From IMG/VR virus record IMGVR_UViG_2778261527_000007: a stretch of DNA of 12,961 bases. The stretch is one strand, 5' to 3'. The notes beneath the pieces were generated by a model that was not told where the DNA came from, made no database searches, and worked only from the letters and a program-made list of their open reading frames with translations. Below are positions 93 through 12,078 of this stretch, piece after piece. This DNA comes from a virus. Taxonomy: Duplodnaviria > Heunggongvirae > Uroviricota > Caudoviricetes. The position numbers were made by a program, and so were the translations under genes. Numbering within the stretch: position 1 is the first letter of the stretch; the number at the start of each line of letters is the position of its first letter.

Positions 93-1112
93 TTACTTCA
101 GCTTGACGTTCAGCGTGTAGTTCGGGCGCAGGTTCAGAGGGATGAAGCTCGCCTCCTGGTGAATGGTCACCATGCCGTAACGGTCAGTCATTACTTTCTG
201 GTAGAACGGGCTGATCTCGCCTTTCGCGGCGATGTCCTGATTACGGGAAGCCGGGCCGTGTACCAGTTTGAACGGGTTACGGTCAGCGCCGTTAAACTTA
301 GGAACGAACAGGCCGGAACCTTCTTCGCTTTCGTAGCGGTCATCGTCCGCCAGAATGAAAGTAATGTTGCCAATGCTGAAGGAGTCATAACCCGCAGTGT
401 TAACCGGGATCAGAGCGCCTTTTGCAGCTTCCGCCACTTTGTTGGTAATAAGGCTGGTTACTTCCGGGTGGCTCGCCAGTACGTCATACAGATCCGGGGA
501 GCAGAAGCAGAAGAAGCGGTCCAGATAGGAGCGGCTCGCGCCGTACTCTTTAACCAACATGCGGCGAATCTTCGCAAGCTGTGCATACACGTTAGCGCCT
601 GCTGAACCGTCCAGGTTGAAACTCAGCGGATCGGCACCCATCGCCGCGCGAAAGTCGATATCACCGTCGTCAGTCTTAGCCGCTTTCGCTTCCTGTTTGA
701 ACAGGGCGCGGGCCAGCGTACTTTCAACCGTTTCCAGGTGATGGTTACGCATACGGATAGCTTTAGACGCGATCACTTCAGAAATAGCCGCAACCTGATC
801 CGGGTTAGCCGGGCTGATCAGACCTTGCCAATCAGCGGTTTTTACGTCCGCTTCGGTGGCGTAGTGTGGGAGCTCCTGGTCACGCAACAGAGGCTTATCC
901 ATTTTGATGGAGTTAACTTCGGTGCCGTAGCGGGCTACCTGTTCCAGTTCAGAGACTTGAGTCTCTACGATGTCCAGAACTTGAGCGTTTGGAGTGGTGG
1001 AGTTAACACCGGAGAAGATACCCAGATCAGAGATCAGGTAATTACCCGCTGGCACTTGTTTAAGTGCCGCTACGGTGTCCAGCTTTTCAAACTGTTTAAA
1101 ATCAATAGCCAT
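93..1112 (-). CDS. Phage major capsid protein (339 aa; lambda gpE-type family suggested)
   Basis: 339-aa ORF with RBS AAGGAAAT just upstream of the ATG at 1112-1110. It lies 13 nt downstream of a ~120-aa head gene, the classic decoration-then-major-capsid arrangement; size and composition fit gpE-type capsid proteins. Family assignment is by recognition, not search. Confidence 0.7.
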   Translation of the reverse strand: MAIDFKQFEKLDTVAALKQVPAGNYLISDLGIFSGVNSTTPNAQVLDIVETQVSELEQVARYGTEVNSIKMDKPLLRDQELPHYATEADVKTADWQGLISPANPDQVAAISEVIASKAIRMRNHHLETVESTLARALFKQEAKAAKTDDGDIDFRAAMGADPLSFNLDGSAGANVYAQLAKIRRMLVKEYGASRSYLDRFFCFCSPDLYDVLASHPEVTSLITNKVAEAAKGALIPVNTAGYDSFSIGNITFILADDDRYESEEGSGLFVPKFNGADRNPFKLVHGPASRNQDIAAKGEISPFYQKVMTDRYGMVTIHQEASFIPLNLRPNYTLNVKLK

Positions 1113-1124
1113 TGTGTGATTTCC

Positions 1125-1496
1125 TTATGCTTTGAAGTAATCGGCGTTGATAGCCAGGCGAATATCACCGGAGGCTGTCAGCGCTTCCAGTGCGGCTTTT
1201 TTGCTCGCGGCGTCTTTAGCACGTAGGGCAAAATCGGTAATCACAACATGGCGATCCACGATAACCAGAGTCTTAGGCTTGCCATCGGCGGACATATTGG
1301 AAAGGTTGATGATCGGCTTGCCAGCGTCAGCGGCGGCGGAGTCGAACAGTGCAAAAGTTTTGCTGTCCAGGAGGTCACCGCAGAAGACGTCAGCCGGGAG
1401 GCTTGGGGCGGTGACTTCGGTGCGGTCAAACAGGCTGGAGGCGTAATTCACGATTACGTCACCTTGCGTTACCGGGTAGCGCTCGGAAGTTTTCAT
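1125..1496 (-). CDS. Small phage head protein, decoration-like (123 aa)
   Basis: Internal ATG at 1496-1494 preceded by AAGGAAAA, the same RBS context as the capsid gene; the longer track ORF (to 1640) has a Cys/Pro/Arg-rich N-terminal extension that is unlikely to be real. Ala/Ser-rich 123-aa protein immediately upstream of the capsid gene. Confidence 0.55.
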   Translation of the reverse strand: MKTSERYPVTQGDVIVNYASSLFDRTEVTAPSLPADVFCGDLLDSKTFALFDSAAADAGKPIINLSNMSADGKPKTLVIVDRHVVITDFALRAKDAASKKAALEALTASGDIRLAINADYFKA

Positions 1497-1689
1497 AAAG
1501 GTTTTCCTTATGGAGGGTTTTAGACGTGGAGAGAGTCCACAGGGTGATCCGGTGCAACGCCGGATATAAGGACCGCCACAGAGGACAATCCGAATTGTTG
1601 GAAGATGGGAGGCCGTGGGGTGAATAGAAGAGGGCGGCATCCGCGCCGCCCTTTCTAATCTGGCTCTCTCTCACCCTCTAGGGTGGGGG

Positions 1690-1709
1690 GAGGTGTAAAC
1701 CTCTTTTTT
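1690..1709 (+). terminator. Possible intrinsic terminator hairpin (GAGGU-GUAA-ACCUC followed by UUUUUU)
   Basis: 5-bp stem with GNRA-type tetraloop followed by six T. Nothing obviously coding upstream on +, so the role is unclear. Confidence 0.3.
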
Positions 1710-1767
1710 GTGGTCACTCACCCGCCAGCGTCACGGGAGCAACCGCCAGCCGATGGGTAAATAACCA

Positions 1768-1796
1768 CAAAAAAGAACCCGGTAGGAGAGACCGGG
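1768..1796 (-). terminator. Intrinsic terminator upstream of the head gene pair
   Basis: On the - strand: CCCGGU-CUCUCCU-ACCGGG perfect 6-bp GC-rich stem followed by UUCUUUUUUG. Sits ~270 bp upstream of the decoration-like gene start. Confidence 0.45.
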
Positions 1797-2697
1797 AGAA
1801 GACAATGTAACTTACTGTCTGATCACTTGTTTTCCTGTGTAGCCTCAGAGCCTTACATGATTTGCTTTCATGGTTCAGCAAAGAAGCCACAGAGGAAAAC
1901 GGGACGCAACCAACGCCCCGGAAACCATCGACACAAATCAACAGTTTATCGTTGAGACCAGGTAACCAGCCCGGCCCAACTGTGGACCCCTAAAGGGTCA
2001 ATACAATCGAAGGAGATTCCGCTTGTATTCTGAAGAGCCGCAGTTAGCGACGCTTTAAAATAGGGCCTGTGCCGCAAGCCCTATGATTAGAGGCATTTTG
2101 AATCGTAGGAATGTCATCAACTGGCGGAACTTGAGGAGAGGACCGCACACAAAGCATTCTGGCAAGTGGAGTTGAAAGAACGCTTTGGGTGAGGGCCGGG
2201 GACTTGCTGAAGGTTCCCGGCTCTCTTACAGACCCTGACAGGTTGGCTAAAACCCATGTTTCTGTACAGGTGTGAGGCGGCAAGCTGCAAAACGGCGATT
2301 TCGACATACTCACCATATCCCACACCATGTATATTAGTTTAACACGAATGATTATCATTTGCAATAAAAATTAATTGCATTGTGTTGTTTGATATGATAT
2401 GTGAGATTGAGGGCAGATCTGGCGGCAGGTACAGAGGAGCCACACAGAAGAGGGGCGGGAGCATCCCACAGGGGCCACAGGAAAGCCTCCACGGGGTTTT
2501 AATGGGGTAAGATGATAAATGACCTTGTCACAGTGGCGGACGCGCTGGAGAGCTTTACAGGAGGTTGTAGAGGGTGGAGGGATTATTGATTGATAATTGA
2601 ACAGGTGAGAGTGTAATTAATTTTTATTGACAGTCTATAAAGATCATGTTATTTGCGTGTGCATACGCACTCACGCCCGCGCCTCCGCGAACACATC

Positions 2698-2802
2698 TTT
2701 TAAATAAAAGATTTTTATTATAATCGTTCAATCGGACTTTGACAAGTCCTCTTTCACTCTTAAATAAAAGATCTTTTATATAATATCTATCGTTCAATAA
2801 TT
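2698..2802. repeat. AT-rich imperfect direct repeat (two ~40-bp copies, ~60 bp apart)
   Basis: TTAAATAAAAGAT(C)TTTTAT..TAAT..CGTTCAAT occurs at 2698-2735 and 2758-2802. A TTGACA hexamer lies between the copies (2739-2744). Confidence 0.5.
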
Positions 2803-2948
2803 AATCGCTTAGGCTCTTAATTATTTCACTCATATATTATTACCATTAAAACCTTCTCGGCCTGATCGGCCTTACCAGGTTTTAGGCCGTAGGCCTGTTC
2901 CCACAATGTGGAGTCTCGCCTGTGTGGCTCACTCCAGACAGGGACCCC

Positions 2949-3006
2949 GGAAATATTTTCCGGGCAGGGTGGAAGATTTTTCCGGCCTGTTAGGAAATAT
3001 TTTCCG
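2949..3006. repeat. Three phased 14-bp repeats GGAA(A/G)AT(A/T)TTTTCCG at 22-bp spacing
   Basis: Copies at 2949-2962, 2971-2984 and 2993-3006, each a near-palindrome (GGAAA..TTTCC). The 22-bp phasing equals two helical turns, typical of protein-binding arrays (operator, iteron or packaging-site type). Confidence 0.6.
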
Positions 3007-3414
3007 ACAATAAGACTATATATAAAACTACCCATAAGACTAACACCCAGGGGCCAGGTCAAGATCTTTAAGGGAGTGTTGGGGAAATCGTAGATTGATT
3101 GGTAAGAGACTGATCTCTGTTAAGCGTCTTACAGACGCGCCTCTTTGGCAGCGCTCGTACCAGCGAGCAAGACCCCTTTGGAACACCGCACGATGTAAGG
3201 TGACCTCTGGGCGGCGGGGTGGGGTCCCCGGCCCGGCATAACGTACAGAACCACAACCCACAGGAACCCACCTAAACGCGCCGCTGTGGCGCTCTCTCCT
3301 ACGTAGACAAGGAAACACCTTATAAACGCCCTCCGGCGCTCTGAGAGCCTTACAGGGGCTTTCTGTGCCTATAGCACAATAAACAAATGATCGCAAGATA
3401 AATCAATAAAGTTA

Positions 3415-3443
3415 TTGCGAATCATTGTCAAATAGTGTAAAAT
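3415..3443 (+). promoter_or_regulatory. Candidate sigma70 promoter for the + strand operon
   Basis: TTGCGA (3415-3420), 17-bp spacer, TAAAAT (3438-3443), ~75 bp upstream of the first ORF. A second candidate is TTGTGA (3449-3454) / TATATA (3472-3477). Confidence 0.3.
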
Positions 3444-3517
3444 AGATATTGTGACGGGGTAGTTAATCAGGTATATAAATCCCCATCATACTATAACCAA
3501 CCCAGCAGGAGAATGCA

Positions 3518-3943
3518 ATGAGTATTTACCTTGATGTTGAAAAAATGGTTGAACGTGTCGATCAGCGTGATCTGACCCGTAAGACCCTGACAGAAACCCG
3601 CAGCCGGATGAAAGCCGCCGGACGTATGAGAGAAGTAGAAGCGATTACGCAGGCCCTTGAATTGACCAAATCCAGTGCCTCCGGCGTTATGCGCCAGTCT
3701 CAGCGCCTCACAGGTAAAATTACAGAGATGGACGCAGAGAAGGCATTAGAGCTTAAAGCAACCGTTGCGCTGTTCGCTTCCAAGTCTACGGATCTGCAAG
3801 CCTCCATTGTGCTGGCGTTCCAATCCCTCTTTGAGGCTAAAGGCGTGCCGATGGAATATGACGAAGTGATGGCCTACATCATGTTGAATGCGGCGGATCA
3901 GTTTGAGCGTATCACCGGAGAGCTACCCGTAATCGTACATTAA
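3518..3943 (+). CDS. Hypothetical protein (141 aa)
   Basis: First gene of the operon; ATG preceded by AGGAG with a 6-nt spacer. No family recognised. Confidence 0.65.
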   Translation: MSIYLDVEKMVERVDQRDLTRKTLTETRSRMKAAGRMREVEAITQALELTKSSASGVMRQSQRLTGKITEMDAEKALELKATVALFASKSTDLQASIVLAFQSLFEAKGVPMEYDEVMAYIMLNAADQFERITGELPVIVH

Positions 3944-5863: not shown

Positions 5864-6238
5864 ATGGAAGCATTTAAGAACCTCCTCAATCAGTTGGAAA
5901 TTCAGAAGGCAGAACAGCGCCAGCGGGAAGCCGAAGAGGCAACCAAACAGAACGAACTCCGCAAGGCACAGGCCGATCTGTCACTGGATGAGGCTATCGC
6001 TCTGTACGCCACACAGTTGGAAGCCTCCGCCAATGCCGCAGACAGCGCCCAGAAGGGCCGCGCCATTAAGAGCCGGGGAATTGCTCTGTGTCACAAGGAT
6101 CAGGGATTCAGCGCCAACGGTCGCCCGGTCTCTCTCCTGACCAAATCCGCAGACCTGCCAGCAGGTCACCGCCGGGTAATCATTAACAAGGCAGCAGGGC
6201 GCACCCTGAAGGCTATCAAACTGGAAGGGGATGAATAA
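5864..6238 (+). CDS. Hypothetical protein (124 aa), translationally coupled to the tape-measure-domain gene
   Basis: ATG preceded by AAGGA. Its stop TAA (6236-6238) overlaps the next ATG (6238-6240) as TAATG. N-terminus is coiled-coil-like. Confidence 0.6.
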   Translation: MEAFKNLLNQLEIQKAEQRQREAEEATKQNELRKAQADLSLDEAIALYATQLEASANAADSAQKGRAIKSRGIALCHKDQGFSANGRPVSLLTKSADLPAGHRRVIINKAAGRTLKAIKLEGDE

Positions 6239-8373
6239 TGAGCGGTAACGTGATCATTACCAAAACGATTAACCGGACCATGTTCACCACGGACGGGGCC
6301 AGCTATAAAAAGACAGTTGACCGTATCAAACAGGTAGGGAAAGAGTGGGACAAAGTAGCGTCCAAGATGAAACCGCTACGCCTCAAGTTTGAGGAAAACG
6401 CCTACACCAAGATCCGCCGGAAACAGCAGGACGCCGCCGCAAAAGCAGCACTGGCAGAAGCCAAAGCCAAAGCGGCAGCAGACGCCAAAGCAGCCAAAGC
6501 ACAGATCGCAGCGGAGCGTAAGATCCAGACAATCCGCGCTAAAGCTATCCGCTTCAGCACTTCAGCGGCTAACGCCAACGTGACCCCGGCCCAACGTGCT
6601 GGACACCTCCAGGAGTTTGGACAGCTTACGCGCCAGTATCACGCCGGGTCTATGGCATTGCAGGAATATAACGCCCGTGTGTCAAAACTTCAGCAAACCA
6701 TGCGCCAACAAGGCCGGGTAGGCATGAGGGGAGCCACAATTCCAGTAACCGCCAAAGTTAACAAACTGGACACCTCCATGATCGAGGGTGCAGGGGGGGC
6801 GATCACCATTGCCGCAACTGTGGCGCTGAGCGGCAAGATCATGACCACCGGGCAGGATTTTGAATCCGCGCTTTCTGGTCTGACAGCGATCACCGGTTCC
6901 ACAGATAAGGCCGCTAAAGAGTTTGATTATCTCCGTGATCAATCCAACCGTTTGGGGCTGGACCTCCTGAAGACTTCAAAGGATTACACTCAATTTGCCG
7001 CCGCTGTTGGTGACAAACTCCCTAAAGACCAGATGAGATCCATCTTTGAGGGTGCCAGTGAATGGGGCCTTGTTACTGGTGCAGACGCCGACGCACAAAG
7101 CCGCGCTTTGAAAGCACTTAACCAAATGATGAGTAAGGGAACGGTGATGAGTGAAGAACTCAAAGGCCAGCTTTCCGAAGCTCTCCCGGGCGCTGTGGGT
7201 CTGTTCGTTAAGGCTCTCAACCAGATGAAAGGGACAACCAACCTTACAGAAAAGGATCTGTTTGACCTGATGCAACAAGGGAAGCTGTTCTCTAAGGACA
7301 TCCTCCCGGAAGTGGCGAAACAGATGAAAGCCGCAGCTCGTAACGGCGGCGCTCTGGATAAGGCTATGAAGTCCAACCGGGCAAGTTGGCAGCGCCTGCA
7401 AACCAGTATGCAGAACGCTATGAATATCTTCTTTACTTCTGGCTTTGGTAACTCACTAACCAGCGCTTTCGACGCTATCAGCGCCGCTGTTAACGGCTCT
7501 GGTGGGGCCTTTGAGATGTTCGGGCATATCGCCGGGAAAATCGTTGAGGGTGCCACAGATGCGTTTACAGAGTTGCACGACACTGTGATCCTGACCTTCC
7601 GCATTATTGAGTATTACGCCGCTAAGATGGGGATCACTGGTGAGCAGCTTAAATCCTGGGGAGAAATGGCAGCATACGCCGCCGGGGTGGCTCTGTTCGC
7701 TGGCTCTATCTGGAAGTTGGGCGGGGCCTTTAAATGGTTGTTGACCATGCTCAACCCGCTAACCAAATTGCTGGGGGTCATGAAAGGGATCGCCGCTATT
7801 GGTGGCATTGAATCCGCTACAACTGGCGGATCTGGTGGGGAAGGTAAAGACAAGCCAAACAAACCGGGCCGGGGTCCGAAAGTTGGCAAGGTAGGCGGCG
7901 CGGCGGCTCTCTCTGGCGGTCCTGTTGGCTGGGGCATTGCGATCGGTTCGGTAGGTGGGGATTATGCCTGGGATAAAGTCATGGACGCTAACGACGCCAT
8001 GTATGGACAGGACACCACCGCCGGAGGCAATCTGAAGAAAGATAGCCCGCTGGGTAAACTGTGGGATTTCATCCACAGCCCAGACCTTCCGACTAATCCA
8101 GACTTTGCCAAACCAACAGATAAAACAGGGTGGGTAAGCTCTTACTCCAATCCGGGTTATGTTCCTCCTGCGCCGACGATTACAGCGCCACAGCTTAAAG
8201 TTGATATGGCAGGTAATCCACTGATGACGCCGCCAGCGTGGCTAAACCAGCCGCTTAACGTGAACGTCAATGTGAAAGTGCAGGATGGGCAGGTTAGGGA
8301 TCTGGTCCGCTCTGAAGTTGAGACCAACAACCAGCAGGCTTTCAACATGCTGATGCAGGGCGGGCCGAACTAA
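6238..8373 (+). CDS. Phage tail tape-measure-domain protein (711 aa)
   Basis: N-terminal Ala/Lys-rich coiled coil, then a region (..ADAQSRALKALNQMMSKGTVMSEELKGQLSEALPGAVGLFVKALNQM..) matching the conserved tape-measure domain as I recall it. C-terminal half has hydrophobic Gly-rich segments (..VGGAAALSGGPVGWGIAIGSVGG..) typical of tape-measure proteins. RBS AGGGGA. Confidence 0.75.
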   Translation: MSGNVIITKTINRTMFTTDGASYKKTVDRIKQVGKEWDKVASKMKPLRLKFEENAYTKIRRKQQDAAAKAALAEAKAKAAADAKAAKAQIAAERKIQTIRAKAIRFSTSAANANVTPAQRAGHLQEFGQLTRQYHAGSMALQEYNARVSKLQQTMRQQGRVGMRGATIPVTAKVNKLDTSMIEGAGGAITIAATVALSGKIMTTGQDFESALSGLTAITGSTDKAAKEFDYLRDQSNRLGLDLLKTSKDYTQFAAAVGDKLPKDQMRSIFEGASEWGLVTGADADAQSRALKALNQMMSKGTVMSEELKGQLSEALPGAVGLFVKALNQMKGTTNLTEKDLFDLMQQGKLFSKDILPEVAKQMKAAARNGGALDKAMKSNRASWQRLQTSMQNAMNIFFTSGFGNSLTSAFDAISAAVNGSGGAFEMFGHIAGKIVEGATDAFTELHDTVILTFRIIEYYAAKMGITGEQLKSWGEMAAYAAGVALFAGSIWKLGGAFKWLLTMLNPLTKLLGVMKGIAAIGGIESATTGGSGGEGKDKPNKPGRGPKVGKVGGAAALSGGPVGWGIAIGSVGGDYAWDKVMDANDAMYGQDTTAGGNLKKDSPLGKLWDFIHSPDLPTNPDFAKPTDKTGWVSSYSNPGYVPPAPTITAPQLKVDMAGNPLMTPPAWLNQPLNVNVNVKVQDGQVRDLVRSEVETNNQQAFNMLMQGGPN

Positions 8374-8419: not shown

Positions 8420-8442
8420 ATAACTCCTAATATCCAGGCTTT

Positions 8443-9009
8443 TCATAACAGATCTTCTATTGAATATTTATTACTGAAATCATCTACTTTGCGTTGTGTG
8501 GCCCCAATGTAATGGAGCGTACTGGATAACGATTTGTGCCCCAATGCCTTACTGATTACGGCTATATCCTCCCCATTGTCATAACCAATCGTTGGTTTAC
8601 TCTTCCTCATGCTGTGGGTCGAAAGATTCAGCCCCAGCTTTTCCCCGGCGTAGCTAATTTCCTCATGCAATTTGGAGCGGCTCACAGGTTTTCCCTTGCT
8701 CCTGTGGCTGTCCAACTGTAAGAGGTATACATGATCAGGGTTCGCCTCTCTCCGGGCCGCTATGATGCGTTTAGCGGTATCGGTGAGCCTCACCCGGACA
8801 GATTCACCCGTTTTCTGTTGGGACAGGACAAGGTGATCGCCTTTGATGTCGTCATAACGGATAGAGCGCAGATCCGACACCCTCAGCATTAATTCATAAC
8901 CCAGCAACCAGGCGTCACGGTACAGCGTCAGCCCCTTGCCCTGTTTGAGTAGCTCAACCGCTACCGCTTTCACTTCCTGAACTGATTTACAGCCCTCTAC
9001 GAAATTCAT
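8443..9009 (-). CDS. Tyrosine recombinase, integrase catalytic domain only (188 aa; FimB/FimE-sized)
   Basis: Strong RBS GGAGGG 5 nt before the ATG. All catalytic signature residues of lambda-Int-type recombinases are present in order: R (LRVSDL), K (QQKTG), H-x-x-R (HSMRKS), H and Y (LGHKSLSSTLHY). There is no room for N-terminal arm- or core-binding domains. Confidence 0.75.
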   Translation of the reverse strand: MNFVEGCKSVQEVKAVAVELLKQGKGLTLYRDAWLLGYELMLRVSDLRSIRYDDIKGDHLVLSQQKTGESVRVRLTDTAKRIIAARREANPDHVYLLQLDSHRSKGKPVSRSKLHEEISYAGEKLGLNLSTHSMRKSKPTIGYDNGEDIAVISKALGHKSLSSTLHYIGATQRKVDDFSNKYSIEDLL

Positions 9010-9033
9010 TCTGTACCCTCCAGATCCTAACTG

Positions 9034-9050
9034 TGATCAATTCTTGATCA
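9034..9050. promoter_or_regulatory. 17-bp palindrome TGATCAA-TTC-TTGATCA with two GATC sites, in the recombinase promoter region
   Basis: Perfect 7-bp inverted arms with a 3-bp spacer, 25-41 bp upstream of the recombinase start codon. Confidence 0.35.
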
Positions 9051-9403
9051 AAAACATGCACTTGTAAACGACAAAAATGATTAATTTTATGATGTGTCTT
9101 TTTAGTGAATTAAATCGGGTTTAATCGCGTTTAATGGTAAAGTAATGACCCGGCAGGGGAGGTAATGACCTGTTTAAGTGGGTAAAAGATGGTTACTTAA
9201 TGTACTATCACCACAAGGCGGGTAAGGTGATTTGACTCCCCCAGCGCCTTAAAGTTACTGTATTTGTGGGCAATTAATTATTGTTTCGTTATGGTGTTGC
9301 CTGGCAAATTTTCAATTTACCCTCAAGAAAAAATCCCCAGCTTTTTTATCCTTATATGAGAATCAATATCATTTGTAAACGATAGTCGTTCTCGTTACCA
9401 ATC

Positions 9404-9582
9404 GGGGCGAAAGCCTTCGCCCCTCAAAGGGCCTCTGTAGGCCCGCTCTCTGTATGCGCCTGTGGCGCTACCACTCTTAACCCTGTGGGTTTGTATTACT
9501 TGTCACAAGATAATGCGCCACAGGCGCACAGGGGAGGCGTCCGCCTCCAGGGTGGCCCGGCTGGGCCACTGGTCCACAGGGT
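9404..9582. repeat. Cluster of GC-rich hairpins and nested inverted repeats
   Basis: Successive perfect stems: GGGGCGAA/TTCGCCCC (9404-9423), GGGCCT/AGGCCC (9429-9444), GCGCC-TGT-GGCGC (9456-9468) and its reverse complement GCGCC-ACA-GGCGC (9515-9527), GGAGGC/GCCTCC (9533-9548), GTGGCCC/GGGCCAC (9552-9569). A 9-bp inverted pair ACCCTGTGG (9480-9488) / CCACAGGGT (9574-9582) encloses part of it. Does not match the REP consensus I remember. Confidence 0.5.
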
Positions 9583-9972
9583 AAAACAACAGAATGGTAT
9601 TGTGTTGTTATTAAGTAATTGAGAATAAAGGGATATCTGAGTGAGCGCACTGTAAGAGCGGAAGGTTGGACAATGTTTGACCAGAATGCAGGCCATCCGG
9701 TAGGGAGCGCCCCCAGATATTTGGCGAAAATACTCTCATCACCCGGGGCCTCAGATCGAGGGGCCTAGCAACAATATCCAAACTCCCGGATATTTTCCCA
9801 CCCAACTGGAAGGAATCCGCCCCTATTTTCTGTTCGTGTATAGGTTAGGCTGAGGGAGGCTTGCCAATGTACACCCCCTGGATTTGGTGATCTGTTAAGT
9901 TATTGATTTTGATCGATTTTAGATCAATCATCCGTTGCCGGGATTACCCCCCACCCAGACGGATGGCACACA

Positions 9973-10155
9973 ATGAATAACGATAAAGCAAACCACCCTA
10001 AACACTTCCAATACTTGGGCCGCATGGTCACTGTTTACCCTACATACATCATTATTGACGGTATCAAGATCAGCCGTGCCCGTCTTTCCTTTGCATTCCA
10101 ATTGGAATTGGCAAAAGCACTTCGACTGCATGAAGAAAGCGTATGCAGAAAATAA
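9973..10155 (+). CDS. Hypothetical small protein (60 aa), uncertain
   Basis: ORF followed 37 nt later by a strong intrinsic terminator; RBS is weak (GGATGG). Confidence 0.3.
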   Translation: MNNDKANHPKHFQYLGRMVTVYPTYIIIDGIKISRARLSFAFQLELAKALRLHEESVCRK

Positions 10156-10191
10156 ATTTCATTTAAATCTTCACGACTGAATAATTTACTT

Positions 10192-10217
10192 AAGCCGCCT
10201 TATGGGCGGTTTTTTTT
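10192..10217 (+). terminator. Intrinsic terminator
   Basis: GC-rich stem (GCCGCC / GGCGG) with 5-nt loop, followed by eight T (10210-10217). Confidence 0.6.
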
Positions 10218-10366
10218 GTGCCTGCCATTTATCTGTGGGTCACAACGTGAGACACAAACTGGGACACAGAGGATTTTTTAGGGTTGAGTCTTTGGCTTCC
10301 CGCTGGCATGATCCAGAACAGGGATTAACGGGACGTTAATCGCAAGCTTTTGATTTTGTTTTATTT

Positions 10367-10492
10367 GACTCGGGGTGCCCTTCTTAAATGAAGGCTGAGA
10401 AATACCCGTATTACCTGATCTGGATAATGCCAGCGTAGGGAAGTCACGGACCACCAGGTCATTGCTTCTTCACGTTATGGCAGGAGCAAACT
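10367..10492 (+). promoter_or_regulatory. TPP (THI-box) riboswitch in the thiM leader
   Basis: Aptamer (about 10367-10445) GACUCGGGGUGCCCUUC..GGCUGAGAAAUACCCGUAUUACCUGAUCUGGAUAAUGCCAGCGUAGGGAAGUC is near-identical to the E. coli thiM TPP aptamer as recalled, including the CUGAGA and ACCUGAUCUGGAUAAUGCCAGCGUAGGGAA elements. Expression platform runs to the thiM SD and ATG. Confidence 0.9.
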
Positions 10493-11281
10493 ATGCAAGT
10501 CGACCTGCTGAGTTCAGCGCAATCTGCGCACGCGTTACACCTTTTTCACCAACATTCCCCTCTTGTGCACTGCATGACCAACGATGTGGTGCAAACCTTT
10601 ACTGCCAATACCTTGCTGGCGCTCGGTGCATCGCCAGCGATGGTTATCGAAACCGAAGAGGCCAGTCAGTTTGCGGCTATCGCCAGTGCCTTGTTGATTA
10701 ACGTTGGCACACTGACGCAGCCACGCGCTCAGGCGATGCGTGCTGCCGTTGAGCAAGCAAAAAGCTCTCAAACACCCTGGACGCTTGATCCAGTAGCGGT
10801 TGGTGCGCTCGATTATCGCCGCCATTTTTGTCATGAACTTTTATCTTTTAAACCGGCAGCGATACGTGGTAATGCTTCGGAAATCATGGCATTAGCTGGC
10901 ATTGCTAATGGTGGACGGGGAGTGGATACCACTGACGCCGCAGCTAACGCGATACCCGCTGCACAAACACTGGCACGGGAAACTGGCGCAATCGTCGTGG
11001 TCACTGGCGAGGTGGATTATGTTACCGATGGCCATCGCGCCGTTGGCATTCACGGTGGCGATCCGTTAATGACCAAAGTGGTAGGAACTGGCTGTGCATT
11101 ATCGGCGGTTGTCGCTGCCTGCTGTGCGTTACCAGGCGATACGCTGGAAAATGTCGCATCTGCCTGTCACTGGATGAAACAAGCCGGAGAGCGCGCAGTC
11201 GCCAGAAGCGAGGGGCCAGGCAGTTTTGTTCCACATTTCCTTGATGCGCTCTGGCAATTGACGCAGGAGGTGCAGGCATGA
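10493..11281 (+). CDS. thiM: Hydroxyethylthiazole kinase
   Basis: 262-aa product essentially matching E. coli ThiM as recalled ([31 protein letters not shown]..). RBS AGGAG; preceded by the TPP riboswitch. Confidence 0.95.
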
Positions 11282-12078
11282 AACGAATTAACGCTCTGAC
11301 GATTGCCGGTACTGATCCCAGTGGTGGTGCGGGGATTCAGGCCGATCTTAAAACCTTCTCGGCACTTGGCGCTTATGGTTGCTCAGTTATTACTGCACTG
11401 GTGGCGCAAAATACCCGTGGCGTACAGTCGGTGTATCGCATTGAGCCTGATTTTGTCGCCGCCCAGCTCGATTCGGTGTTCAGCGATGTGCGAATCGACA
11501 CCACTAAAATCGGTATGTTGGCGGAAACCGATATTGTTGAAGCGGTGGCAGAACGGTTGCAACGTTATCAGATCCAAAACGTGGTACTCGACACCGTTAT
11601 GCTGGCAAAAAGCGGCGACCCGCTGCTTTCACCTTCGGCGGTTGCTACACTGCGCAGTCGATTATTGCCACAGGTTTCATTAATAACGCCAAACTTGCCC
11701 GAAGCTGCCGCCTTGCTCGACGCGCCACACGCGCGCACCGAACAGGAAATGCTGGAACAAGGGCGATCGCTGTTGGCGATGGGCTGTGGCGCAGTGCTAA
11801 TGAAAGGTGGTCATCTGGATGATGAGCAAAGCCCGGACTGGCTGTTTACCCGCGAGGGTGAACAACGGTTTACCGCACCGCGCATTATGACCAAAAACAC
11901 CCACGGCACTGGTTGTACGCTCTCTGCGGCGTTGGCTGCACTACGCCCGCGCCATACAAACTGGGCTGACACCGTACAGGAGGCAAAAAGCTGGCTTTCA
12001 TCAGCATTAGCCCAGGCCGACACGCTGGAAGTTGGTCACGGTATTGGTCCGGTTCACCACTTCCACGCCTGGTGGTGA
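11278..12078 (+). CDS. thiD: Hydroxymethylpyrimidine / phosphomethylpyrimidine kinase
   Basis: 266-aa product matching E. coli ThiD as recalled ([27 protein letters not shown]..). ATGA start/stop overlap with thiM. Confidence 0.95.

Follow-up and report, generated by a model that had tools for sequence, protein, structure and literature searches.

The DNA analyzed here, a 12,961-nt virus record (IMG/VR IMGVR_UViG_2778261527_000007, Caudoviricetes) whose full length we call the window, includes the thiM and thiD genes of Escherichia coli and, upstream of them at 9010-10366, a segment of accessory DNA that forms the far end of a genomic island. Our analysis indicates, with a probability of roughly 85%, that a tyrosine integrase inserted this island inside the thiamine pyrophosphate (TPP) aptamer of the thiM leader, and that the island carried its own copy of riboswitch nucleotides (nt) 1-72, rebuilding the switch upon insertion. 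Integration into a structured RNA locus with restoration of the target is a known kind of event, and is here extended to a riboswitch.

Downstream of the island, the window contains a TPP riboswitch on the + strand at 10361-10458 (Rfam RF00059, 75 bits vs. a cutoff of 54.3, model positions 1-105), followed on the same strand by intact chromosomal open reading frames (ORFs) for thiM (10493-11281) and thiD (11278-12078), both annotated as such in the matching genome, and then by yegX. The thiM/thiD region is 96-99.7% identical across E. coli, and the window itself matches E. coli strain 90-1 at 99.9% identity. In ordinary E. coli, the gene next to the riboswitch is rcnR, which lies on the thiM strand, divergent from rcnA, with its stop codon 91 bp before the riboswitch; a preliminary description of this DNA had mistakenly given rcnR as divergent from thiM. 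That description also reported no rcnR-like ORF upstream of the riboswitch, which is borne out by a tblastn search with RcnR that returned no match anywhere in the window (E<=10), and by a blastn comparison of the K-12 rcnR-to-riboswitch DNA with the window that yielded matches at chance level only.

To place this junction among its relatives, we used a 371-nt empty-site probe spanning rcnR, the riboswitch and thiM, and found the uninterrupted K-12-type junction in 4728 of 5426 complete E. coli genomes, with the remaining ~13% altered at rcnR-thiM. At least 80% of 9010-10500 is present in only 26 of these genomes, while the riboswitch is matched in 5424, and nearly all genomes align to the window from 10367 onward only. 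The predominance of the K-12-type junction over 26 carriers agrees with the earlier proposal that accessory DNA joins the chromosome at the thiM leader, and shows that the upstream sequence is not the normal conserved neighborhood of the operon.

In strain 90-1, the complete locus starts with intact rcnR, continues through the native leader and nt 1-71 of the riboswitch into an integrase gene interrupted by the insertion sequence (IS) IS911, and reaches the riboswitch and thiM after ~15 kb of island. The island measures 14.9 kb including IS911, and rcnR is found beyond it. The alternatives offered in the preliminary description, insertion or replacement, can accordingly be separated: insertion is what we observe, and replacement is contradicted by rcnR standing intact 14.9 kb upstream, outside the window. 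A direct repeat corresponding to riboswitch nt 1-72 (GACTCGGGG...GCCAGCGTAG) is located at both island ends and is present in single copy at the empty site. Its left-junction copy, outside the window, occupies 13447-13517 of the strain 90-1 locus (L001), and its right-hand copy, which aligns to that native block and represents the island-borne identity block of the attachment site, occupies 10367-10438 of the window (+ strand); the two are identical at 67 of 72 positions and lie 14,919 bp apart. The junctions thus do carry a duplication of the target, although in the form of a 72-bp imperfect attachment-site block and not of a transposon-type target-site duplication. We rejected insertion of a transposon or IS with such a duplication as the origin of the island, given that the repeat is 72 nt long and 93% identical, with an indel, and that IS911 and IS4 are secondary insertions inside the island.

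Polymorphisms distinguish the two repeat copies. On the rcnR side, the P3 loop is the native TGCG and the equivalent of 10411 is a C, and this copy is native-type in 4/4 E. coli islands examined. The thiM-side copy has TTAAA and a T at 10411, with TTTG or TACG loops, or a CCCCATC/GATGGGG stem, on that side in the three other E. coli islands, and these thiM-side P3 variants accompany the same flanking arm in other genera. Because the island-type variants lie on the thiM side and the native alleles on the rcnR side, the thiM-side block is best read as island DNA, with the crossover at its 3' edge. We bound the crossover to 10412-10438 (+ strand), between the last island-specific base at 10411 and the position (10438) after which the left-junction copy diverges. 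The breakpoint had earlier been placed between 10218 and 10366, an interval that proves to be wholly island DNA; the apparent similarity breakpoint at 10366/10367 arises because an island-borne look-alike of the riboswitch starts there. At the left junction, the sequence GGATAATGCCAG-CGTAGT(C)-CTGGC(G/T)(A/G)TTATCC forms an inverted repeat around a short spacer, with the typical look of a tyrosine-recombinase core. The crossover core is probably GGATAATGCCAG followed by a CGTAG overlap, at riboswitch nt ~66-72, and we infer the exact cleavage positions from the sequence.

The aptamer at 10361-10458 (+ strand) would thereby be a chimera, with its 5' two-thirds derived from the island and its 3' third from the chromosome, and the expression platform downstream of 10438 is unchanged chromosomal sequence. 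Chimeric elements on the thiM side score 73.6-75 bits against the RF00059 cutoff of 54.3. Across 17 thiM-side copies (15 distinct, from ~15 hosts), 99.1% of 344 pair cells in the Rfam-derived helices are standard pairs, compared with 31-50% in slid-partner controls. Three P3 pairs exhibit compensatory double changes (U-A/U-A/C-G to C-G/A-U/U-A), and in island copies a U before GACUC adds a U-A pair to P1 where the native sequence has C.A. Judged by these pairings, the P1-P5 fold of the TPP riboswitch is kept, with covariation. The displaced rcnR-side copy scores 53.6 bits for the window-type island (strain SCU-316), below the cutoff and with mismatched P1 and P4 pairs, and 60.2 bits for the second subtype (strain LCP17S3_I1), with two P1 mismatches. 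A functional riboswitch at the left junction of the window type was accordingly rejected, as the copy falls just below the Rfam cutoff with P1 and P4 broken. A permissive Rfam scan of 8900-10500 returned the TPP riboswitch only.

The integrase gene lies outside the window, at 13604-16214 of the strain 90-1 locus (L001), and since it is split by IS911, the island is probably locked in place in this window-type strain. Intact integrases have 452 aa (strain SCU-316) and 435 aa (strain LCP17S3_I1); those of the two island types are 70% identical, with a nearly identical C-terminal 330 aa and a divergent N-terminal ~120 aa. They show a weak match to the Pfam Phage_integrase catalytic domain (25-29 bits) and a match to PHROG 1, with no named arm-binding domain. 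In every complete island examined, the 435-452-aa integrase is encoded directly downstream of the rcnR-side riboswitch copy. Its conserved half is found in 221/5426 E. coli genomes (~4%), always on the chromosome.

The link between this integrase and the riboswitch extends well beyond E. coli. A scan using one genome per species gave 48 loci, and riboswitch sequence stands beside the integrase in 28/28 enterobacterial loci retrieved, with riboswitch nt 1-72 (or 1-74) located 85-160 nt upstream of the integrase in all 22 loci with an intact N-terminal match (L009-L030 except L012, plus L032-L034 and L053), and a full riboswitch-plus-thiM-leader copy downstream wherever the retrieved locus extends far enough. 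The hosts include Enterobacter, Citrobacter, Klebsiella, Pantoea, Franconibacter, Buttiauxella, Winslowiella, Rahnella, Lelliottia, Serratia, Silvania, Leclercia, Mangrovibacter, Erwinia, Trabulsiella and Kosakonia. This distribution points to a dedicated integrase family that uses the thiM riboswitch site across many enterobacterial genera.

More distant members of the clade are found at another RNA. Integrases of ~30% identity from marine Gammaproteobacteria are encoded 60-100 nt downstream of rnpB (RNase P RNA) in five loci (L037, L040, L044, L048 and L055, with the site at ~9530-10001 in each), and in four of these loci (not L055) a second copy of the 3' 117-175 nt of rnpB occurs 3.4-8.3 kb farther along, at the far end of the insert. 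By this classical RNA-gene-targeting pattern, the four marine elements are islands integrated in rnpB. No TPP riboswitch or tRNA was found beside these 30%-identical marine integrases. Because these relatives sit at rnpB, the integrase clade is taken to target structured RNA loci, its enterobacterial branch having moved to a riboswitch.

Immediately upstream of the riboswitch copy, the window contains what we propose to be the integrase-distal attachment arm (P arm), a sequence of ~145 bp at 10221-10366 (+ strand) that replaces the native thiM promoter region and is unrelated to the K-12 sequence at the same position. The arm is nearly identical between E. coli and E. cloacae, and its successive blocks are retained in Pantoea, Mangrovibacter, Kosakonia, Silvania and one metagenome-assembled genome of the Enterobacteriaceae. 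Near its start are three direct repeats with 12-bp spacing (GGGTCACAA, GAGACACAA and GGGACACAG; 10237-10269, + strand), candidate arm-type integrase sites that constitute the only three matches to GRGWCACAR in the window, where 0.63 are expected by chance for a pattern defined post hoc. For the second integrase subtype, the corresponding positions hold repeats of the GGGGTACAA type, in step with its divergent N-terminus, and we take the arm repeats to be putative integrase binding sites. We also observed, at the left junction, a copy of the arm-type repeat overlapping the integrase start codon and reading ATG-GGACACAA or TTG-GGGTACAG according to the subtype (7905-7940 in L006, strain SCU-316; 20150-20185 in L005, strain LCP17S3_I1; ~13600 in L001, strain 90-1). 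Due to this overlap, integrase codons 2-4 co-vary with the enzyme's own putative binding site, an arrangement that hints at autoregulation.

Within the arm, the riboswitch P4/P5 segment additionally recurs in inverted orientation at 10301-10327 (+ strand; 27 nt, 85% against 10409-10435, inverted repeat I1). This copy holds CTGGCATGATCC, resembling the core-type CTGGC(G)ATTATCC beside the left-junction crossover, and is located just upstream of the thiM-side riboswitch in Pantoea and UBA3516 by blastn, and in all subtype-A arms. The arm is preceded by a terminator-like hairpin with a T-run at 10192-10220 (+ strand; a 9-bp stem with 5 G-C pairs, then TTTTTGTGCC), which is conserved in the SCU-316, XJ34 and E. 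cloacae copies.

This arrangement has consequences for transcription of the operon. As the P1 strand begins at 10366/10367 with only island DNA before it, the insertion has displaced the native promoter of thiM, and since thiD is required for thiamine synthesis, the island would have to supply thiMD transcription. The terminator at 10192-10220 leads us to expect the promoter within the arm, where we identified a candidate replacement, TTGAGT-17-CATGAT (10284-10312, + strand), that matches the consensus at 8/12 positions, below the scanner threshold of 9/12. Elsewhere the hexamers at the same place are TTGTGT..CATTAT (Pantoea, UBA3516) and TTACAA-16-TACTAT (Mangrovibacter, Kosakonia). The arm is thus predicted to provide the current promoter of thiMD, which the terminator would shield from transcription arising within the island. 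In E. coli B, spontaneous deletions reaching thiM are reported to result in a vitamin B1 requirement (Fomenkov 2017 supplement, PMC5487053).

In the mechanism we propose, the attachment site of the island would consist of the arm at 10221-10366, the copy of riboswitch nt 1-72, the core and a short second arm, followed by the integrase gene, with the core reading GGATAATGCCAG - CGTAG.. - CTGGC.ATTATCC. Strand exchange at this core would join the island-borne 5' two-thirds of the aptamer to the chromosomal 3' third, the expression platform and thiMD, such that a complete riboswitch is rebuilt beside thiM. The native promoter, together with the native copy of nt 1-72, would be separated from it by 14.9 kb and precede the integrase gene.

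Several observations weigh against this mechanism. The right bound of island-derived sequence is set in the window by one single-nucleotide polymorphism (10411), a column at which other E. coli islands carry the E. coli base, and allele variation or gene conversion within the block may have contributed to the pattern. Binding sites are assigned by sequence pattern only, using a repeat motif defined post hoc. A consensus promoter scan detects no sigma-70 site on the + strand of 10221-10366, the promoter candidate reaches just 8/12, and the second island subtype differs in sequence there. The integrase of the window-type strain is disrupted by IS911, and no excised circular or attP-type junction was found in viral contigs.

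These reservations must be set beside the alternatives. Were the geometry that of a tRNA-targeting element, the crossover would lie at the 5' edge of the block (10366/10367), 10367-10438 would be chromosomal, and the island would end together with the segment 9010-10366 of the preliminary description. For elements of that kind, the 5' edge is indeed the usual point of crossover, similarity to all E. coli genomes does start at 10367, and the rnpB-targeting relatives have a 3'-terminal block. We nonetheless consider this geometry very unlikely, as the thiM-side block differs from the E. coli allele according to island type (TTAAA, TTTG, TACG or the CCCCATC stem), the rcnR-side block is native in 4/4 E. 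coli islands, the variants recur with the same arm across genera, and the core-type inverted repeat is located at the 3' edge of the block. It is also conceivable that the site is a generic hotspot at which homologous recombination or IS activity swaps DNA, with the riboswitch duplication incidental; the ~13% of E. coli genomes lacking the K-12 junction, their variable contents, the integrase-less remnants in O157:H7, the presence of several IS elements (IS911, IS4, IS1) and a variable E. coli B island at thiM that was described without attachment sites would all fit such a scenario. Base-exact junctions would not, nor would repeat limits (nt 1-72 or 1-74) that are the same across the enterobacterial loci retrieved, an integrase gene that always adjoins the repeat, a conserved arm architecture, or a 72-bp, 93%-identical repeat that is no IS target-site duplication, and we regard a generic hotspot as highly improbable.

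Still less credible, in our assessment, is that the junction was made by the recombinase encoded beside it in the window, a 188-aa protein (8443-9009, - strand). This protein is a tyrosine recombinase whose gene lies 1.35 kb from the junction, and related short motifs occur at 9034-9063, 9897-9926 and 10344-10366. However, it is unannotated in the other island type, whose junction is built in the same way, its module is found elsewhere without the riboswitch, and it lacks an N-terminal DNA-binding domain, whereas the 435-452-aa integrase adjoins the rcnR-side copy in every complete island examined and in the enterobacterial loci retrieved.

A further possibility, distinct from the integration mechanism itself, is that the riboswitch acts as a regulatory device for these elements, with integrase expression being thiamine-responsive and island carriage rewiring the regulation of thiamine salvage. 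In the excised state, the island promoter and riboswitch 5' half would stand before the integrase and lead into a pseudo-aptamer that is almost complete (53.6-60.2 bits). After integration, the integrase would instead be preceded by the native thiM promoter with an aptamer fragment, and the island promoter would take over thiMD. The inverted P4/P5 copy could serve as an antisense lock on the aptamer. We consider this regulatory role unlikely; if it were true, splitting of the aptamer without repair, as by the satellite of the phage-inducible chromosomal island (PICI) type described below, would abolish TPP control.

Comparison with known elements places the thiM islands in a familiar setting. 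Like islands and satellites that target tRNA or transfer-messenger RNA (tmRNA) genes (P4-type and related tyrosine integrases), they have an end-located tyrosine integrase, a long identity block and a rebuilt target, along with putative arm-type repeats, a candidate core inverted repeat and tandem arrays at one site (L007, L011/L024). Unlike those islands, their target is a cis-regulatory aptamer, of which the element restores the 5' part and would also have to replace the promoter, where tRNA-type elements restore the 3' end, and it is the integrase gene that the displaced native promoter and 5' fragment then precede. Attachment sites in small structured RNA loci are also known from Felsduovirus prophages, which integrate in rybB (Hochhauser 2023, PMC10121019), and from phage phiEf11, which integrates in the ffs 4.5S RNA gene (PMC12540744). 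The thiM islands resemble these and the rnpB elements in this respect, the rnpB integrases being distant true homologues, but rybB, ffs and rnpB encode stable or trans-acting RNAs and are entered at the 3' end, whereas thiM offers a biosynthetic operon leader that is entered two-thirds of the way through its ligand-binding domain.

The thiM region itself has been recorded before. E. coli B has a variable island "adjacent to thiM" carrying EcoBLMcrX (Fomenkov 2017, PMC5487053), and in a survey of E. coli defence islands "rcnR-thiM" appears among the locations not rated as hotspots, holding a type IV restriction island to which no mobile-element type is assigned (PMC10121019 supplement). These correspond to our islands in location, and often in their defence-type cargo, but were treated as a variable intergenic region; neither PMC5487053 nor PMC10121019 mentions a riboswitch, attachment site or integrase for the thiM region. 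The TIGER/Islander papers make no mention of riboswitch targets, and we found no description of a riboswitch as an attachment site in the full-text literature searched, which left subscription journals mostly outside, so that a prior description is possible.

Given these comparisons, a cis-regulatory riboswitch joins the short list of structured-RNA attachment sites (tRNA, tmRNA and a few small RNAs), with an unusual geometry that obliges the element to supply both a functional promoter and the first two-thirds of a ligand-binding RNA. What results are natural chimeric riboswitches, combining island halves from many genera with host 3' parts, whose fold has visibly been kept by selection. Our analysis also provides a mechanism and exact borders for a region that surveys list only as "rcnR-thiM" or "adjacent to thiM". 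Finally, the compact, conserved pair of integrase and attachment site could serve as an integration tool, with a site in essentially every E. coli.

Returning to the remainder of 9010-10366 and the adjacent recombinase gene, we found the 188-aa protein (8443-9009, - strand) to comprise a catalytic domain only, Xer/Fim-like in character (Pfam Phage_integrase, 63.3 bits; PHROG 216, integrase), with weak NCBIfam matches to XerA/XerC and tyrosine-type DNA invertases that are far below cutoffs, and with the XerC-like 4a8e as the closest solved structure. The other island type at the site (LCP17S3_I1, for which annotation is available) has no annotated counterpart, and the protein is present in unrelated contexts; for these reasons it is assigned to the island cargo and not considered the junction integrase. 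A Fim-like invertible switch spanning 8443-9930 was rejected, as all 26 genomic and 11 metagenomic copies are colinear, and is further disfavoured by NCBIfam invertase scores of 19-25 bits against cutoffs of ~220 and by an inverted repeat of just 30 nt at 70%.

Upstream of the recombinase gene is a promoter-like site with a GATC palindrome (TGATCAAttcTTGATCA; 9034-9068, - strand, TTTACA-17-AAGAAT at 9068..9040), and the segment 9034-9063 forms an inverted repeat with 9897-9926 (I2, 30 nt, 70%). These two segments and 10344-10366 are related AT-rich stretches with TTGAT/GATC motifs, the first two containing four Dam sites; the first overlaps the recombinase promoter, the second is located upstream of a 60-aa ORF, and the third abuts the riboswitch copy. 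The preliminary description had characterized this ~1.35 kb beside a recombinase as mostly non-coding and repeat-rich, which the hairpins, inverted repeats and 188-aa recombinase gene confirm.

The "repeat-rich" part corresponds to a hairpin cluster at ~9400-9600, comprising four GC-rich tetraloop hairpins and one long hairpin, with a minimum free energy of -107.3 kcal/mol and fold z-scores of -5.9 (+ strand) and -6.3 (- strand). A comparison of 10 distinct homologues shows variation largely confined to the loops and hardly any in the stems, with a few G.U-compatible changes (+ strand) and no compensatory pairs. The cluster matches no Rfam family, and 9000-10366, hairpin cluster included, has no relatives in phage or plasmid collections. 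Beyond the cluster is a variable stretch at ~9610-9860.

The 60-aa ORF (MNNDKANHPKHFQYLGRMVTVYPTYIIIDGIKISRARLSFAFQLELAKALRLHEESVCRK; 9973-10155, + strand) is conserved, with its frame kept in three diverged islands, and has no Pfam, PHROG or NCBIfam match; outside this ORF, the rest of 9010-10366 is non-coding and strongly self-complementary, with several inverted repeats. An unrelated island at the rluB locus likewise preserves the frame, with a RelA/SpoT-domain gene immediately after it, and the two genes there possibly form a toxin-antitoxin-like pair. We also observed that the recombinase, the non-coding region and the 60-aa ORF occur together elsewhere without the riboswitch (L061, L062, L066 and L067), as a module spanning 8439-10138, with similarity in these other contexts stopping at window position 10138. 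The rluB-locus island (L008:11224-12400) shares only window 9760-10138 of this module, beside a serine recombinase.

The island cargo comprises an AAA-type ATP-dependent nuclease, a lambda E-like capsid protein, a weakly D-like decoration protein, a tape-measure-like protein and a small recombinase, together with an O-like replication initiator that has a weak PHROG match (E ~1e-5). The capsid and decoration genes lie within window 93-1640, and the 711-aa tape-measure-like protein is encoded at 6238-8373 (PHROG 5255, E 1e-110). Genes for a terminase, portal or AlpA-type regulator were not detected in the window. From its gene content, the cargo looks phage-satellite-like; a partial virion gene set without portal, terminase or other tail genes is odd for a 15-kb element. 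Between the decoration-like gene and the annotated gene that follows, ~1.9 kb (1640-3518) contains no annotated or recognizable gene, either here or in SCU-316, and its - strand ORFs of 57-118 aa have no PHROG matches. The second island type (LCP17S3_I1) carries HNH, AIPR and other defence-like genes.

Other occupants of the site were also observed. O157:H7 (strain 7636, L004:17730-20004) has a 2.2-kb integrase-less remnant between rcnR and the riboswitch, with genes for an outer-membrane protein, a hypothetical protein and an HTH-like protein, and strain XJ34 (L007:10650-12930) has a tandem of this remnant and a window-type island. In E. coli O157 strain Al Ain (L078:1-16110, L079:4600-4880), the riboswitch is occupied by a satellite resembling capsid-forming PICIs, with genes for a 406-aa integrase, a DUF927 primase, an HK97 capsid, a protease, a portal, TerS and TerL. 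It is like the window-type islands in using the same 98-nt aptamer as landing site and in being capable of tandem arrangement, and differs from them in its 406-aa integrase, its 14-bp core (AGAAATACCCGTAT, aptamer nt 31-44) and the absence of 5' repair: it does not bring the missing 5' 30 nt, and the aptamer beside thiM is consequently truncated. A PICI-like satellite is also present in tandem in L077 (9650-10010), to the left of a window-type island.

Secondary insertions were apparent as well. In strain 90-1, ISKpn26 splits yehB (L001:9100-10265), and the IS911 copy that splits the island integrase lies at 14256-15424 of the same locus. In strain 11PC (L003:16102-17430), an IS4 element is found together with a large deletion, by which tape-measure fragments have been joined to give a 533-aa "hypothetical protein".

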